From Candidatus Pacearchaeota archaeon (GTDB lineage: Archaea; Nanobdellota; Nanobdellia; Pacearchaeales; DTIR01): DNA of 64,000 bases. The notes beneath the pieces were generated by a model. It worked only from the letters and a program-made list of their open reading frames with translations. It ran no database searches and was not told where the DNA came from. Location: assembly GCA_018303805.1 (NCBI GenBank), contig JAGVXL010000001.1:506164-570163 (forward strand). The letters are read 5' to 3'. A program made the position numbers and the translations under genes. Every line of letters starts with the position of its first letter. Within the stretch, counting starts at the first letter, position 1. Shown one piece after another: positions 6,774 through 60,670 of the stretch.

Positions 6774-6778
6774 AAAAG

Positions 6779-6906
6779 TGCGGGGGATAGGATTTGAACC
6801 TATGCAGGCACTAAGCCACTAGCTTTCTGAGATTTTTTCTTTCCGAGGTTTCTTCCTGAGAAAGCTCGCCTAAGGCTAGCCCGTTTGGCCGCTCCGGCAC
6901 CCCCGC
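6779..6906 (-). tRNA. tRNA-Leu(TAG) with 44-nt intron at 37/38 (6825-6868)
   Basis: Hand fold: acceptor GCGGGGG/CCCCCGC-A; anticodon stem CTAGC/GCTAG; loop CT-TAG-G|intron|A; long variable arm; T-loop TTCAAAT. Confidence 0.93.
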
Positions 6907-13015: not shown

Positions 13016-13507
13016 TCAGTGTTTTAAAAGATTTCTTATTTTTCCCGCAATTATCTTAAGATGCTCTGGATCTGCTTTTGGTCCAAGCTGTGTTGTTATA
13101 TATCCCCTATATTCTTTAAAGAAAACAGTTTCTTTTGCCCATATTTCTTGAAAATCTTTTTCTAAGCCATAAATAGGATAAAGCTTTATGTGTGCATGAT
13201 TGACCCCAAGCCCTTCCATTATCATTGCTGTTCTTTTGACATTTAATGCCCTATCAAGCATTTTTGCAACTTTTTTTGCAATCTTTAATAATCCGCAGTA
13301 TTCATTATCTTGCATATTAAAAATATAAGAATCAAAATGTTTTTTTGGCATAACTAAAGTCATTCCGTCAACATTCGGATTTATGTCTAAGAAAGCCAAG
13401 AAATCTTTGTCCTCATAAATAATTTCCGCAGGAATTTCCTTCCTTGCTATCCTGCAGAATATGCAATCCTTATTCCCTTCTTGAGATGGCATCTTTGTAG
13501 TAAACAC
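13016..13507 (-). CDS. HIT family hydrolase
   Basis: DCIFCRIARKEIP, FLDINP; variant HIT motif HAHIKL. Confidence 0.9.
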   Translation of the reverse strand: MFTTKMPSQEGNKDCIFCRIARKEIPAEIIYEDKDFLAFLDINPNVDGMTLVMPKKHFDSYIFNMQDNEYCGLLKIAKKVAKMLDRALNVKRTAMIMEGLGVNHAHIKLYPIYGLEKDFQEIWAKETVFFKEYRGYITTQLGPKADPEHLKIIAGKIRNLLKH

Positions 13508-14820: not shown

Positions 14821-16308
14821 TTATGCCCTGATTTTTTCCCTTAAGATTTTGGGTAAGTCGGAAATCTTCACCCTTTCCTGCTTCATGCTGTCACGCTCTC
14901 TTATTGTGACATCCTTCTGCTTCATGCTATCATAATCCAATGTTATGCAGAATTTTGTGCCGACTTCATCCTGCCTTCTATAACGCCTGCCGATGCTGCC
15001 CGAATCATCATAGAAAACTTTTATCTTGGAATCTTTAAGCATTTCATACACCTTTTCCGCCTCCTTGTCCAAGCCATCCTTGTTCACAAGGGGGAAAACA
15101 GCCGCCTCAAAGGGCGCCATTGCCATAGGAAACCTGAAAATCGCCCTTTCTTCTTTATCAACTTTTTCTTTTTTGTAAAAAATGTCAAGAAAAGCCCAGA
15201 TATTCCTGTCAACGCCAAATGAAAGTTCTAAAACATGCGGAATAAGTTTCTTGTTGTTATGAAAGATTTCAAGGTTTTTCCCGGAAATTTTTTCATGCCC
15301 CTTCAGGTCATGGTCTGTCCTGTAATGCAGGCCGGCAACCTCTTTGAATCCGCCAAGAGTCTCTAAATCCAGCTCAATGTCCATATGAATCTTGTTGTAA
15401 AAAGCCCTTTCTTCTTCGCTTAACTCCCTGAACCTAAATTTTTCTTTTGGTATTTTTAGGATGTCAAGATAAAACCCCTGTATCTTCGCAGCATTATAAA
15501 GATAAAATTTCGGGAATTTTTTATGCAGTTCCTTGCATGAAATCTCTTTTGCTTCTTTCTCCTCTGCCAGTTTAACATTTAGCTTCAGATTTTCAATACC
15601 TTCCCATTTTTCAGGATTAAGCTTGTCAATTTCATCCGCATCAAAAAAAATTTGAAGCTCTGCCTGCGTAAATTCTCTCAAGCGGAAAAACAGCTGTCTT
15701 GGCGAGATTTCATTTCTGTAAGCCTTGTCTATTATTGCCAATCCCAAAGGAAGCTTTTTCCTTGTTGCGTCAAATTCCTGATTAAAGGCAAGATAGGCAG
15801 ACTGGGCTGTTTCAGGGCTTAGATAGCCCTTCTCGCCTGCAAAACCTATTGAAACAGGAAACATCATATTGAACCACTTTACTTCGCTCAGCCCACCATT
15901 GCATTTAGGGCATTTCAGCTTTTTCTTTCCTATCAGGCTGTTCATCTCTCCAAGAGACATGCCATCTGTATACGGCTTTGAATCTTCTAATAATTGGTCT
16001 GCTTTGAAGCGGAAGTGGCAGTTCTTGCATTCTGCCAATGGATCATTAAAATTCTCTATATGCCCCGAGGCAATAAAAACTTTCTCAGGCAGGATGTTGT
16101 TGCCTTGGATTTCATAATAATTTTCCTCCTTAAGAAAAAAATTCCTCCATAAATTCTCCCATTTAATCTTCATCAGCTTTCCCAAATGCCCATATGTAAA
16201 AAATCCAGATTTTCCCCCATAAATATCAGCAGTTGGAAAAAAGAACCCCCTTTTGCAGGCTATTGCAGATATTTCATCAGCCCTGTTATTTTCAGGTTTC
16301 CCAGCCAT
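14821..16308 (-). CDS. glyS: Glycyl-tRNA synthetase (alpha2 type)
   Basis: YGHLG, SPETAQ, AYRNEISPRQ..FRLREFTQAE, LELSFGVDR, GSIGRRYRRQDEVG. Confidence 0.96.
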   Translation of the reverse strand: MAGKPENNRADEISAIACKRGFFFPTADIYGGKSGFFTYGHLGKLMKIKWENLWRNFFLKEENYYEIQGNNILPEKVFIASGHIENFNDPLAECKNCHFRFKADQLLEDSKPYTDGMSLGEMNSLIGKKKLKCPKCNGGLSEVKWFNMMFPVSIGFAGEKGYLSPETAQSAYLAFNQEFDATRKKLPLGLAIIDKAYRNEISPRQLFFRLREFTQAELQIFFDADEIDKLNPEKWEGIENLKLNVKLAEEKEAKEISCKELHKKFPKFYLYNAAKIQGFYLDILKIPKEKFRFRELSEEERAFYNKIHMDIELDLETLGGFKEVAGLHYRTDHDLKGHEKISGKNLEIFHNNKKLIPHVLELSFGVDRNIWAFLDIFYKKEKVDKEERAIFRFPMAMAPFEAAVFPLVNKDGLDKEAEKVYEMLKDSKIKVFYDDSGSIGRRYRRQDEVGTKFCITLDYDSMKQKDVTIRERDSMKQERVKISDLPKILREKIRA

Positions 16309-18541: not shown

Positions 18542-18722
18542 AGCGGGGAGAGGGACTCGAACCCTCGAATAAGAGCTTGCTATTGTAGTTTCTCTACCTT
18601 CCTAGAGTTTCTCTCCGCGAAAAGCTGTGCTTTTCGGGGCACAGGAAAACTTTGTTTTCCTCTGTTTCTAAAGAGAAACTGTAGACTGCAGGCTCCCGCC
18701 GTAGCCACTGGGCCACCCCCGC
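18542..18722 (-). tRNA. tRNA-Cys(GCA) with 108-nt intron at 37/38 (18578-18685)
   Basis: Acceptor GCGGGGG/TCCCCGC with U73 discriminator; stem GGAGC/GCTCT; loop CT-GCA-G|intron|A; T-loop TTCGAGT. Confidence 0.9.
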
Positions 18723-18923: not shown

Positions 18924-19145
18924 TGGGCCCGACAGGATTCGAACCTGCGACTTCTTGCTTTCTTTCCTTCTATTGTAGTTTTTCTACCTTCCTAGAGTTT
19001 CTTTTTCCGCGAAAAGCAGGCAATCCTCGCCGAAGCGAGCATCACGGGCTTTTCGGGGCACAGGAAATCTTTGATTTCCTCTGTTTCTCTAAAAAGAAAC
19101 TGTGGATAGAAGGCAAGCGCTCTATCCAAGCTGAGCTACGGACCC
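18924..19145 (-). tRNA. tRNA-Arg(TCT) with 147-nt intron at 37/38 (18960-19106)
   Basis: Acceptor GGGTCCG/CGGGCCC-A; stem CTTGC/GCAAG; loop CT-TCT-A|intron|A; T-loop TTCGAAT. Confidence 0.9.
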
Positions 19146-32830: not shown

Positions 32831-33334
32831 TTAGTCCTGTTCAGGCGTTGTTTTTGGCACAGTAAGAGTAACTATTATTCCTACTATTACAACCAAAGCA
32901 ATTACACCCCCACCCCATTGCTGCCACCAGTTGTTAGAAGTGAATGAAAAACCCCCGTAAGTGTAGGAAAGCATCACTATAAAGATTATGAATGCTATGC
33001 TTGCCAAGATGATATAATAAACACCCCTGGTTTTTGAAGTTATGAACATCCCTACGAGTATGACTAAGGAGAGCAGCACTGCTATTGCTATCCCTAATCT
33101 TGGAAAAATTTCAGAAAAAAATCTTGGCATAAAATCCCACTGCAATGAAAGCAAGCCAATGGCAACACCAATAATCACGTCTATGCCCCTTTGCCCTCCG
33201 AGCACCCTTGATTTTTGGAGTATGGCAAACACGACTGCAAACACCAATAGGAAAGGTATTAAAACTGAAAAAACTCCAAAAGACGCCCACATCTGAAGCA
33301 TTGCATCAAGCTGTGTGAATCCATAATATACCAT
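32831..33334 (-). CDS. Membrane protein, paralog 2 of tandem family
   Basis: PFLLVFAVVFAILQKSRVLGG motif. Confidence 0.8.
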   Translation of the reverse strand: MVYYGFTQLDAMLQMWASFGVFSVLIPFLLVFAVVFAILQKSRVLGGQRGIDVIIGVAIGLLSLQWDFMPRFFSEIFPRLGIAIAVLLSLVILVGMFITSKTRGVYYIILASIAFIIFIVMLSYTYGGFSFTSNNWWQQWGGGVIALVVIVGIIVTLTVPKTTPEQD

Positions 33335-33444
33335 TTTATTTTGTATATTTTAGATGTTTTTTGGTTTTTATATAGTTTTCTATCCTTTAGATTTTTATTA
33401 GGTTTTTGCTTGGCTTATTGGTTTTTATAAATCTTATCTTTTTT

Positions 33445-33497
33445 TGCTATTGTAGTTTTCTTCTACCCAAGGACTCTTCTTTTAGAAAAAGAAGAGG
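33445..33497. repeat. Intergenic copy of the tRNA-intron terminus plus hairpin
   Basis: TGCTATTGTAGTTTTCTTCTACC vs TGCTATTGTAGTTTCTCTACC at 18578; followed by CTCTTCTTT-tagaa-AAAGAAGAG. Confidence 0.75.
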
Positions 33498-33499
33498 GC

Positions 33500-34003
33500 T
33501 TACTCCTCTTTGCTTTCATTTTTGCCTTTCATTGCCACAATAATAACAACCAGGATTATAACAACGAAAACCACTGACTGGAGGACCATGTTCCCTGCAG
33601 AGCCCTTGCCTGTTTCAATAATCTTGCTGAGCCAGCCGGTACTCCACAAAACCGCTCCAATGAGTATGATTCCTGTAAGGATGGCTATTGCTATCCCTAA
33701 CCCTTTATTGATATTCCCCTCTTTTGTTGTGCCTCCGACAAAGCCAAGGATTATCATAAAAACCAGTATCAGGACAGCCAGAACAGCAATAACCGGCACG
33801 ACTTCAACTATAACAATTCTTGCCTGCTCAACTGCAATGAGGATAAACGCGATAACCAGGGAGATAATAGAATTTATCTGGTGCTTGCTGTCCCCAAGAA
33901 TCTTGGATTTTTCTAGAATAGCAAAAATTAATGTAAAGACAAGGGCAAAAGGCAAGACAATCTGGTTGAACCAGTCCCCCCCAAAAATGCCTAACGGTGC
34001 CAT
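33500..34003 (-). CDS. Membrane protein, paralog 1 of tandem family
   Basis: PFALVFTLIFAILEKSKILGD..IN.IIS motif. Confidence 0.8.
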   Translation of the reverse strand: MAPLGIFGGDWFNQIVLPFALVFTLIFAILEKSKILGDSKHQINSIISLVIAFILIAVEQARIVIVEVVPVIAVLAVLILVFMIILGFVGGTTKEGNINKGLGIAIAILTGIILIGAVLWSTGWLSKIIETGKGSAGNMVLQSVVFVVIILVVIIVAMKGKNESKEE

Positions 34004-49448: not shown

Positions 49449-49563
49449 TGGGCCTAAGAGGATTTGAACCCCTGTCTCTCGGTTTCTTTCGTTTTTCTTC
49501 GAGGTCTTTTTTTAAAAGAGCTCTCCGAAGCCGAGTGCCCTATCCAGGCTAGGCGATAGGCCC
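49449..49563 (-). tRNA. tRNA-Arg(TCG) with 41-nt intron at 37/38 (49484-49524)
   Basis: Acceptor GGGCCTA/TAGGCCC-A; stem CTCGG/CCGAG; loop CT-TCG-G|intron|A. Confidence 0.9.
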
Positions 49564-50816: not shown

Positions 50817-52193
50817 TTATTTTAATAATTTGAGCAATATTTCCCTTGCAATCCTGCTGTCTGCCCTGCCTTTTGTTGCAGCCATAACCTGCCCCAGCAA
50901 AAAGTCAAGCGCTTTTTTCTCCCCTGATTTAAAATCCTGGACTGCCTTTGGATTATTTTTCAGGATATCAACGCAGATTTTTTCAAGTTCCTCCTTGTCC
51001 TCAATCCTTGCTGTCTCTTTCAGTTTTTCCTTTGGATTGAATGATTTAGGGATGAACCTGTTCAGAAGTTTTTTTGCAGCAGTTTCAGTTATCTCCTTTT
51101 TTTCAATCATTTTGAGCAGCTCTGAAAAATGCCCGGGATTTATACTCACATCCTCAAGCTGCTTTTTATTCCAGTTTAAAATCCTCAGCAATTCAATTGT
51201 AACCCAGTATGAAGCAAGTTTCTTGTCAATGCCAAAATTCAGCACTTGCTCGTAAAATTCTGAAATTGCCCTGTTCTGGCTCAGCACTTCTGCAGTGTCA
51301 GTTTCAATCTTGTGCTGCTTCACAAATCTGTTTGTTTTTGCATGAGGAAGTTCAGGCAGTTCTTTCTCAATCTTAGCAGCGAGGTTTTTGTCATGAAGCA
51401 TGATTGGCAAGTCAGGGTCTGGAATAAATCTGTAGTCCTCTGCCTGCTCTTTTTCTCTCATTAAAATTGTTATGCCATTTGCCTCGTCAAAAGCCCTCGT
51501 TTCCCTTTTTACAGTATTTCCCTTTTTTGTTTCAGCTTCCTGCCTTGCAGTCTCGTACTCTACTGCTTTCATTATACTGTTCAATGAGTTGATATTTTTT
51601 ATCTCAACTCTTTCTCCAGAAGTAGAGATGTTTACATCTGCCTTTATGCCTGCATCCTTTTCTAGTGCTTTTATGTATCCAAGTGTGATTATCAATTTTT
51701 TCAGCCACTCTCTAACCTCTTTAGAGGATTTAAAGTCCGGCTCAGTAACAATTTCCACAAGAGGCAAGCCGCATCTGTTGTAATCAACTTCTCCTGTATC
51801 AGGATTCCATGCTGCAGGGTCTTCCTCAAGATGCACTTCCCTTATGCGTATGCCTAAGAATTCTCCTCCAGAGCCGACAGGTACACTATAAGAGCCAGAG
51901 ATTGTATCCTGATAACCTTTTGGCAGGTCAGGCCAGTCATAGTGCTTTCTCTGCCATATCAATGCCTTCTCGCTTAATTTGCATTCAAGCATTAATGCTA
52001 TTGCAATTGATTCCTTTATCGCCTCTTCATTAGGAAGCATCGGCTTGCTTCCGGGATATCCACAACAAATTGGGCAAATGTTAGTATTAGGTTTAGTATT
52101 TCCTTTTTTGTAATTAGTAGGACATCTACAAAAAAGTTTTTCTTTTGTTACTAAATATCCATGAACTTCTAATCCTATCTTAACATTTGACAT
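50817..52193 (-). CDS. gatB: Asp/Glu-tRNA amidotransferase subunit B
   Basis: KIGLEVH, CPICCGYPGSKP, HLEED, DYNR.G.PLVEIVTEPD, EIKNINS, DYRFIPDPDLP. Confidence 0.95.
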   Translation of the reverse strand: MSNVKIGLEVHGYLVTKEKLFCRCPTNYKKGNTKPNTNICPICCGYPGSKPMLPNEEAIKESIAIALMLECKLSEKALIWQRKHYDWPDLPKGYQDTISGSYSVPVGSGGEFLGIRIREVHLEEDPAAWNPDTGEVDYNRCGLPLVEIVTEPDFKSSKEVREWLKKLIITLGYIKALEKDAGIKADVNISTSGERVEIKNINSLNSIMKAVEYETARQEAETKKGNTVKRETRAFDEANGITILMREKEQAEDYRFIPDPDLPIMLHDKNLAAKIEKELPELPHAKTNRFVKQHKIETDTAEVLSQNRAISEFYEQVLNFGIDKKLASYWVTIELLRILNWNKKQLEDVSINPGHFSELLKMIEKKEITETAAKKLLNRFIPKSFNPKEKLKETARIEDKEELEKICVDILKNNPKAVQDFKSGEKKALDFLLGQVMAATKGRADSRIAREILLKLLK

Positions 52194-60577: not shown

Positions 60578-60670
60578 TTATATTTCTGGCTGCTGTAGTT
60601 TATATTCTTTTAGAATCAATTAGCTTTTCTTTTGCCAAGGATTTTCTTTTTCTAAAAGAAAATGCTTTTT

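Follow-up and report, generated by a model that had tools for sequence, protein, structure and literature searches.

Is a sequence that closes a tRNA intron and recurs between two protein genes the same element in both places, and how could it have come to stand there? This question is raised by positions 33445–33467 of the window (the whole stretch of DNA that was analysed, 64,000 nucleotides), where the plus strand reads TGCTATTGTAGTTTTCTTCTACC. The first-pass annotation had compared these letters with the end of the intron in tRNA-Cys, had seen a hairpin next to them and no tRNA exon nearby, and had proposed that the intron family and an intergenic repeat are one element, in support of mobility. 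The minus strand, on which both flanking genes are encoded as well, is the one that is informative. Read on this strand, the match to the Cys intron end is real: the reverse complement, GGTAGAAGAAAACTACAATAGCA, aligns with the 3′ end of the tRNA-Cys(GCA) intron, GGTAGAGAAACTACAATAGCA, with two 1-nt indels, and with that of the tRNA-Arg(UCU) intron, GGTAGAAAAACTACAATAG, with one 2-nt indel. The hairpin was confirmed as well. It is perfect, comprises 10 base pairs and a 3-nt loop, and occupies positions 33474–33496.

Match and hairpin are parts of a minimal unit of 54 nt at 33446–33499, which was delimited by homology and by its absence from the orthologous spacers of four relatives. The unit and all its parts lie on the minus strand. 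In sense order it reads GCC-CTCTTCTTTT-TCT-AAAAGAAGAG-TCCTTGGGT-AGAAGAAAA-CTACAATAGC. The 5′ strand of the hairpin, termed P1, is a pyrimidine arm (Y, CTCTTCTTTT, 33487–33496), which was also returned by a sequence-agnostic scan for Y-R-R′ arrangements. Fold prediction places the 3-nt loop, TCT, at 33484–33486, and the 3′ strand of P1 is a purine arm (R, AAAAGAAGAG, 33474–33483) that is perfectly complementary to Y. Comparison of copies identifies the following linker, TCCTTGGGT (33465–33473), as the CYTYGG motif of the family, and the last part, CTACAATAGC (33446–33455), as a 3′ terminal motif with the family-wide consensus CTAYAAKAG[C]. Between linker and terminal motif lies the tract R′ (AGAAGAAAA, 33456–33464), which mirrors R at 9 of 10 positions and is a candidate third strand of a triplex. 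The terminal motif and GTAG at 33463–33466 could form a 4-bp hairpin, and the predicted fold of the unit region consists of P1 and this tail hairpin. RNA folding of the 71-nt region gave a z-score of −1.08, no better than shuffles; the value is weak because shuffled sequence rich in Y and R pairs too.

The unit begins directly after the TAA stop codon (33500–33502) of the upstream gene, the sense context being …GAG GAG TAA, the unit, and then AAAAAAAGATAAGATTTATAAAAACC…. According to the ORF call this gene (33500–34003, minus strand) encodes a membrane-protein paralog of 167 aa, for which a Pfam search gave no match. ORF call and paralog comparison assign to the downstream gene (32831–33334, minus strand) the next 167-aa paralog of a tandem trio. 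An A run and a TATA-like box follow downstream of the unit, likewise downstream of the copies in the genomes G258 and G257. The spacer also contains a 12-nt direct repeat, TTGGTTTTTATA (sense TATAAAAACCAA), at 33361–33372 and 33418–33429 of the window, which represents a second copy of the promoter-like box.

In the 575-kb genome there are two exact occurrences of the 13-mer CTATTGTAGTTTT, and a 13-mer common to about 255 nt of intron and 1.15 Mb is roughly at chance level. The genome-wide search with intron tails that had been suggested was carried out with a profile from seven tails, built without the site. It returned the site as the best non-training match of the genome, with an E-value (0.054) that is weak by itself. 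Both numbers would suit a chance similarity in A/T- and purine-rich low-complexity DNA, that is, the unique match within chance expectation which the first-pass annotation had named as speaking against its own proposal. Significance comes from the wider evidence, however, and not from the 21 nt. The unit is identical at 40 of 42 positions to a copy behind the stop codon of ftsZ (genome positions 86432–86505; blastn E=1.6e-13), and this copy is linked to the introns: it extends upstream into the UUCG-capped hairpin and the H3 stem of the long introns and is matched by a profile made from introns only at E=4.8e-10. Furthermore, the first unit of the tRNA-Thr(GGU) intron in a genome from another family of the same order (G084), AAGC-TCTCTTCTTT-AAAA-AAGAAGAGA-CCTTGG-AGAGAAGAAA-CTACAATAGC, is 84% identical to it over 56 nt (E=8e-10), and the genome is enriched about 12-fold in Y-R-R′ units. 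Against these values a chance origin of the match is of practically negligible probability.

Homology is secure because of the bridging copy at ftsZ, the Thr intron of G084 and the common syntax of all copies. Together with the intron profile they support the initial proposal that the intron family and the intergenic sequence form one family. The unit itself combines a hairpin and linker of the ‘B-type’ with the GGTAG...CTACAATAG end of the ‘A-type’, and this mixed makeup ties both sub-types together. The Cys intron, with which it had initially been compared, is more distant from it than the short B-type units are.

The common syntax consists of AAGC, a pyrimidine arm Y, a loop, a purine arm R, a CYTYGG linker, R′ and finally CTAYAAKAG. 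It is found in nearly all introns at position 37/38 in this genome (Phe, Thr, Ser-GCU, Val, Leu-UAA, Leu-CAA and Arg-UCG) and also in the intron of the Ala gene within the rRNA spacer. The introns of Cys, Arg-UCU, Glu and Ser-UGA follow the same syntax with extra hairpins nested in the P1 loop. Altogether the genome holds at least 12 copies outside tRNAs and about 14 intronic ones, and the places where the family is found include tRNA introns, leaders and trailers, the spacers of rRNA and positions immediately behind stop codons. Four of the intronic copies lie in the window, all on the minus strand. The tRNA-Cys(GCA) gene (18542–18722; ARAGORN with introns) has a 108-nt intron at 37/38 (approximately 18578–18685), in which H2 and H3 hairpins are inserted in the P1 loop of an A-type unit. 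The tRNA-Arg(UCU) gene (18924–19145; ARAGORN with introns, Rfam) contains a 147-nt intron of the same family (approximately 18960–19106). By comparison of copies, tRNA-Leu(UAA) at 6778–6906 carries a 44-nt B-type intron (AAGAAA/CCTCGG/AAAGAA) and tRNA-Arg(UCG) at 49449–49563 one of about 41 nt (AAAAGA/CCTCG/AGAAAA). A second intergenic minimal Y-R-R′ unit of the window was found by blastn and the Y-R-R′ scan at 60625–60662, again on the minus strand. It reads AAGCA-TTTTCTTTT-AGA-AAAAGAAAA-TCCTTGGC-AAAAGAAAA with a mirror that is perfect over 9 nt, and it shares the TCCTTGG linker of the unit studied here.

The intron profile also detected the H2/H3 hairpin modules immediately 3′ of the gene for RNase P RNA and in the stretch that separates the spacer tRNA from 23S rRNA (genome positions 51332–51412 and 16153–16190). 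At the loci of other copies, Rfam recognised only the adjoining tRNA, rRNA or RNase P. The module capped by UUCG, CCCGTGATKCTCRC-YTCG-GYGAG...TTGCCTG, was found in both orientations and within the loop of either H3 or H2. Its stem shows compensatory changes when the copies at genome positions 249595–249735 and 315862–315938 are compared, and it therefore behaves like a separate element nested at loops. We considered a C/D-box or K-turn guide RNA for this module. On inspection it contains GUGAUG...GAUU and lacks a proper D box and sheared G·A pairs; Rfam was negative, and the module is missing from the unit at 33446–33499. A hammerhead-like core (CUGAUGA...GAAA) was likewise rejected, as it did not fit on inspection and Rfam was negative.

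Standard tools mishandle the intron-containing tRNAs. Rfam misses tRNA-Cys at the gathering score, ARAGORN labels tRNA-Cys as ‘Gly(gcc)’ and both Arg genes (18924–19145 and 49449–49563) as ‘SeC(tca)’, and a crude ORF caller places spurious ORFs over the tRNAs at 18542–18722, 18924–19145 and 49449–49563.

Another reading takes the site for what is left of a decayed tRNA gene, with nothing but the 3′ part of the intron surviving. Its 3′ 23 nt, including GCA, do resemble an intron end. The unit is complete, however, with Y, R and R′, and is no fragment. ARAGORN, Rfam and the Rfam scan with E≤10 agree with the earlier observation that no tRNA exon is nearby: the nearest tRNA or tRNA fragment is about 14–16 kb away, the matches of the Rfam 15 scan in 33200–33700 are at chance level (E≥0.75), and no exon remnant was found at E≤10. 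Moreover, the order of the three paralogs is kept in four relatives, none of which has a tRNA in the spacer. We therefore consider a tRNA relic highly improbable.

Compared with archaeal tRNA introns bordered by a bulge-helix-bulge (BHB), the unit has the homology, but it is located outside tRNA and rRNA genes and its predicted fold shows no such motif at the borders, that is, no two 3-nt bulges flanking a 4-bp helix. In its intronic relatives the BHB is formed by the anticodon loop and a tRNA-specific 3′ extension, and this extension is missing from the copy at 33446–33499. The common part is thus not an intron terminus in the splicing sense, as had been assumed, and consists of the mirror third strand and the family-wide 3′ motif. 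This bears on a further explanation, in which spliced-out introns spread as RNA by reverse splicing or ligation, reverse transcription and recombination, with the intergenic copy being a retro-copy. Its sense orientation inside a probable transcript would agree with that, as would the 3′ end CTACAATAGCA, which is the same as in the Cys intron, and the reverse transcriptases encoded by some relatives. However, no reverse transcriptase was found in the studied genome. The intron 5′ end TCTACAG is missing from the unit, which starts at AAGC like other non-intronic copies, and no BHB can be drawn at its borders. In addition, AATAGCAAAAA is the 3′ consensus of the family in non-intronic copies of other genera rather than a Cys-specific splice junction, and antisense copies adjoin 16S rRNA in relatives. 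Taken together, a retro-copy is very unlikely.

The most characteristic property of the family is that across copies R′, which follows the linker, mirrors R. Examples are AAAGAAGAGA/CTTCGG/AGAGAAGAAA, AGAAAG/CCTTGG/GAAAGA, AAGAGAAA/CCTTGG/AAAGAGAA and AAAGAAAGAAA/.../AAGAAAGAAA; the corresponding tracts in the unit are AAAAGAAGAG/TCCTTGGGT/AGAAGAAAA. Among 12 distinct sequence classes the mirror identity of R and its own R′ is 0.927. Permuted pairs gave 0.816 ± 0.026, and 0.927 was not reached in any of 100,000 permutations. As controls, shuffling of the letters within R gave 0.792 and a reading as direct repeat 0.833. A test anchored only on the succession of purine run, CYTYGG and purine run yielded p≈0.011 in the studied genome (17 units) and p≈0.011 in relatives (6 units). 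Stem and third strand also change together. At one position of the A-type stem, compared over many genomes, a C:G pair is accompanied by G in eight cases and by A in two, and a T:A pair by G in none and by A in 13 (Fisher test, 9e-5, copies being treated as independent). All of these co-variation statistics treat copies as independent and ignore their shared descent. Past the 6-nt seed the mirror is extended in 20% versus 18%, and the positions concerned correspond to the non-purine stem base (…AACT), beyond the third strand, so that this comparison was discarded. The arrangement is also over-represented. In the sequence-agnostic scan for Y, loop, R, linker and mirrored R, arms of 7 nt gave nine loci, one of them the unit studied here, against 0.75 in shuffled sequence, and arms of 6 nt gave 41 against 12.1 expected.

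Since copying processes do not generate mirror repeats, the mirror pattern implies selection for three-stranded pairing. A triplex is putative for the unit itself. On the sense strand, Y and R would form Watson-Crick pairs and R′ would bind as an antiparallel purine third strand, resulting in a purine-motif triplex. The complementary strand could adopt a pyrimidine-motif triplex with the classical T·A-T and C+·G-C arrangement. In all intronic copies it is the purine-motif strand that appears in the RNA; purine-motif triplexes of RNA are generally regarded as unfavourable. Within these limits the three-way co-variation points to a natural intramolecular triple helix that may be under selection in archaea.

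The family is found beyond this genome. Of 251 genomes sampled from the order, 30 contained A-type minimal units, as did 22 of 112 genera; their identity between families of the order is up to 98%, and most of the copies are located in tRNA introns. Other locations are the rRNA spacer, behind its tRNA (G001), the 16S leader (G017) and, in one case, the span of a 23S rRNA match (G007). In two genera, an antisense A-type unit is located within 1–3 nt of the mature 16S 5′ end (G162, L037 1500–1553; G248, L057 1500–1556), where it possibly contributes to the stem for rRNA processing. Contig C5 of G213 contains four tandem 88-nt repeats directly upstream of an intact tRNA (L044, approximately 13150–13470), each of which combines the first 14 nt of a tRNA gene with an A-type unit and a promoter-like box. 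In G203 an Rfam RT-16 RNA, which is associated with reverse transcriptases, was observed about 0.7 kb from an A-type unit (L052 2211–2384).

An exact-pattern scan for the tail in 185,579 species genomes matched only metagenome-assembled genomes labelled Pacearchaeota, Woesearchaeota, Nanoarchaeota or just ‘archaeon’, and the host is a Pacearchaeota/Woesearchaeota-type DPANN archaeon. Metagenome contigs gave no match to an exact 24-mer of the sub-type of the unit, and a search of metagenomes for loci orthologous to that of the membrane gene did not bring up any relatives. Among viral contigs the B-type pattern had no match and the A-type tail had one exact match (L098, IMGVR_UViG_3300008259_000449, positions 19–40), at the extreme end of a 12.9-kb contig that also has a tRNA gene. 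This match is compatible with chance, as about 0.2 are expected.

The spacer can be compared with that of relatives in which the three tandem membrane paralogs are syntenic (G001, from the same genus, with 77% protein identity; G003, from the same family; G002 and G004). The empty sites that the first-pass annotation had suggested looking for were found: the unit is absent from the orthologous spacers of all four genomes. In G003 and G004 a promoter-like box, (A)TATATAAAACC, follows the stop codon by 9–12 nt. The studied genome has the same box as TATATAAAAACC with about 125 extra nt before it, of which the first 54 are the unit. The spacer therefore holds about 70 nt besides the 54-nt unit that G003 and G004 lack, and either the insertion event may have been larger than the unit or the duplication may have come afterwards. 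A second locus shows the same pattern. The copy 3′ of ftsZ is absent behind ftsZ in all four relatives, and the FtsZ protein end (…EFIE-stop) is identical in G002 and G004. Conversely, G001 has a similar minimal unit near a stop codon at another site (L104). Gain and loss between close relatives are thus well supported by these sequence comparisons. For the spacer, to speak of an ‘insertion’ rests on parsimony and on the good alignment with G004, as the spacer of the same genus cannot be aligned base by base. Of the mobility that had been proposed, at least gain and loss stand, with empty sites in four relatives at two loci; the direction may have been from repeat to intron or from intron to repeat.

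The borders give no sign of a conventional transposon. No terminal inverted repeats are present at the unit, which is flanked by TAA on one side and AAAAAAAG on the other, and the target-site duplications that the first-pass annotation had suggested looking for are not visible there; in full-length relatives, CTACA(A/G) stands at either end in direct orientation. The unit thus lacks both hallmarks of a MITE or an IS-derived element. Neither the studied genome nor G001, from the same genus, gave a match to Y1 transposase (PF01797) or TnpB (PF07282), though a few relatives were positive. G003 has by far the most copies of H2-type hairpins (at least 26 matches) and is the only close relative with matches to Y1 of the IS200/IS605 type, a coupling that may be coincidence.

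There are four intergenic copies whose first base directly follows a genuine stop codon, namely the unit studied here (window position 33500) and those behind ftsZ, a SecE-like gene and g303831 (genome positions 86430, 87676 and 303829); the junctions read TAA/GCC, TGA/GCTCTC and TAA/GCTCTT. A target preference around TRA/GC would agree with such starts, as would a function or the fact that spacers in this genome are very short. As an alternative to target preference, they suggest that the 5′ AAGC of the element overlaps the stop codons.

A function at this position is the core of the main rival explanation: the unit would be a cis-element, for instance one that stabilises 3′ ends, signals processing or acts as insulator/terminator between genes of the same direction, which was recruited repeatedly and whose presence in tRNA introns reflects the same function. 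Besides the four starts behind stop codons, the orientation of most copies along local transcription agrees with this, and several copies precede an A run and a TATA-like box. The identity of up to 98% of A-type units across families of the order and the copies at conserved places beside rRNA ends would also be explained. On the other hand, four relatives, with genes and promoters conserved in other respects, lack the unit at the orthologous sites. Relative to rRNA, copies are found in either orientation, the hairpin is followed by no long U run on the sense strand, and the bias in orientation can also be explained by selection against T runs in transcription units. Bacterial PIT motifs, of comparable architecture, gave no promoter or terminator activity (PMC4666352). 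A recruited cis-element is therefore the most serious competitor, though in our view an improbable one.

Our preferred reading, which we regard as probable, is that of a tolerated DNA-level insertion of a repeat-family copy whose architecture is selected for triplex formation. The stretch 33446–33499 is a minimal copy of a dispersed non-coding DPANN repeat family that also forms most of the tRNA introns at position 37/38 in this genome. Y, R and R′ change together from copy to copy, which would reflect selection for a fold-back three-stranded helix. In the studied lineage, a recent insertion would have brought the copy into the spacer directly behind the stop codon of the membrane gene. Spread of the unit probably took place at the DNA level, and at this site the unit presumably lacks a cellular function. 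The insertion would most likely be neutral or selfish and be co-transcribed with the upstream gene, the orientation of the copy probably being the only one without long T runs in the transcript.

The results bear on how archaeal tRNA genes gain introns that are spliced by an endonuclease. A 2014 review described the mechanism of their transposition as unknown (PMC4090602), and a 2026 census of Asgard tRNA genes gave no general pathway for the arrival of introns (bioRxiv 10.64898/2026.10.13.758758). The locus described here is a clean case, in which one small unit occurs both as tRNA introns and as a free-standing, lineage-specific insertion with empty sites. An origin of introns from the repeat, or the reverse, hence becomes testable by comparative and population genomics. 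For the annotation of DPANN genomes these units matter as well, since because of them tRNA genes are overlooked or wrongly typed and spurious ORFs are annotated.

As a tentative extension, which we consider possible rather than probable, the Y-R-R′ cassette could be the self-folding triple-helix vehicle of tRNA-intron gain in DPANN archaea, an ‘introner’ for endonuclease-spliced introns. The cassette would land in, or be copied into, transcribed non-coding DNA such as stop-proximal spacers, rRNA spacers and tRNA flanks. In an anticodon loop it could survive as an intron once the splicing motif is completed by a short 3′ extension complementary to the anticodon. What is recognised or exploited during copying would then be the triplex, whether formed in RNA or in single-stranded DNA.

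Several known systems resemble parts of this picture. With REP/BIME elements and MITEs the family has in common that the units are small, non-coding, hairpin-forming and multi-copy, mostly extragenic and often behind stop codons, nested or clustered, and patchy in distribution. In contrast to them, the archaeal unit lacks terminal inverted repeats, a target-site duplication and, in this genome, a cognate RAYT/Y1 or TnpB, and its third, mirrored strand has no counterpart in REPs or MITEs.

For Thermoproteales, very similar BHB introns across isoacceptors have been reported, implying spread after speciation (Fujishima et al. 2010, as summarised in PMC4090602). According to the same summary, this spread is thought to act at the DNA level by an unknown mechanism. 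Near-alike introns in different tRNA isoacceptors are therefore common to both groups. The introns of the DPANN family, in contrast, are all located at the canonical 37/38 site. Its unit also occurs outside tRNAs (at mRNA 3′ ends, in rRNA spacers and in trailers), with empty sites in relatives, and it has the Y-R-R′ mirror. To our knowledge, neither copies outside tRNAs nor a Y-R-R′ mirror has been reported for the intron families of Thermoproteales.

A full-text literature search returned no published description of such repeats in archaeal tRNA introns, and the only described counterparts that we found for intramolecular triplex repeats are bacterial DNA repeats without known function. These class II intrastrand triplex repeats, known as PIT elements, BoxC or TMECO (Hoyne et al. 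2000, as cited in PMC4666352), have no assigned function, and TMECO forms a stable DNA triplex in vitro (Holder et al. 2015, PMC4666352). The archaeal unit agrees with this class in the order of its arms, mirrored at 9 of 10 positions, and in its over-representation. Both systems consist of a pyrimidine arm, a loop of 3–6 nt, a complementary purine arm, a short second loop and a mirrored purine arm that measures about 9 nt. Both systems occur intergenically in multiple copies that vary from one close relative to another, and in both the complementary strand could form a pyrimidine-motif version. Sequence homology is absent, however. The bacterial motif is G/C-rich (CCCTCNCCC...GGGNGAGGG), whereas the archaeal family is A/G-rich with 2–3 G per arm; the unit studied here, with 3 G in 10, bears no resemblance to this G/C-rich TMECO consensus. 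The second loop measures 6–9 nt in the archaeal family and 3 nt in bacteria, and the DPANN family has conserved ends (AAGC... and ...CTAYAAKAG) and hairpin modules nested in the loop. The two are thus analogous in architecture and separate as families, and the chief difference between them is that the archaeal family sits inside tRNA introns.
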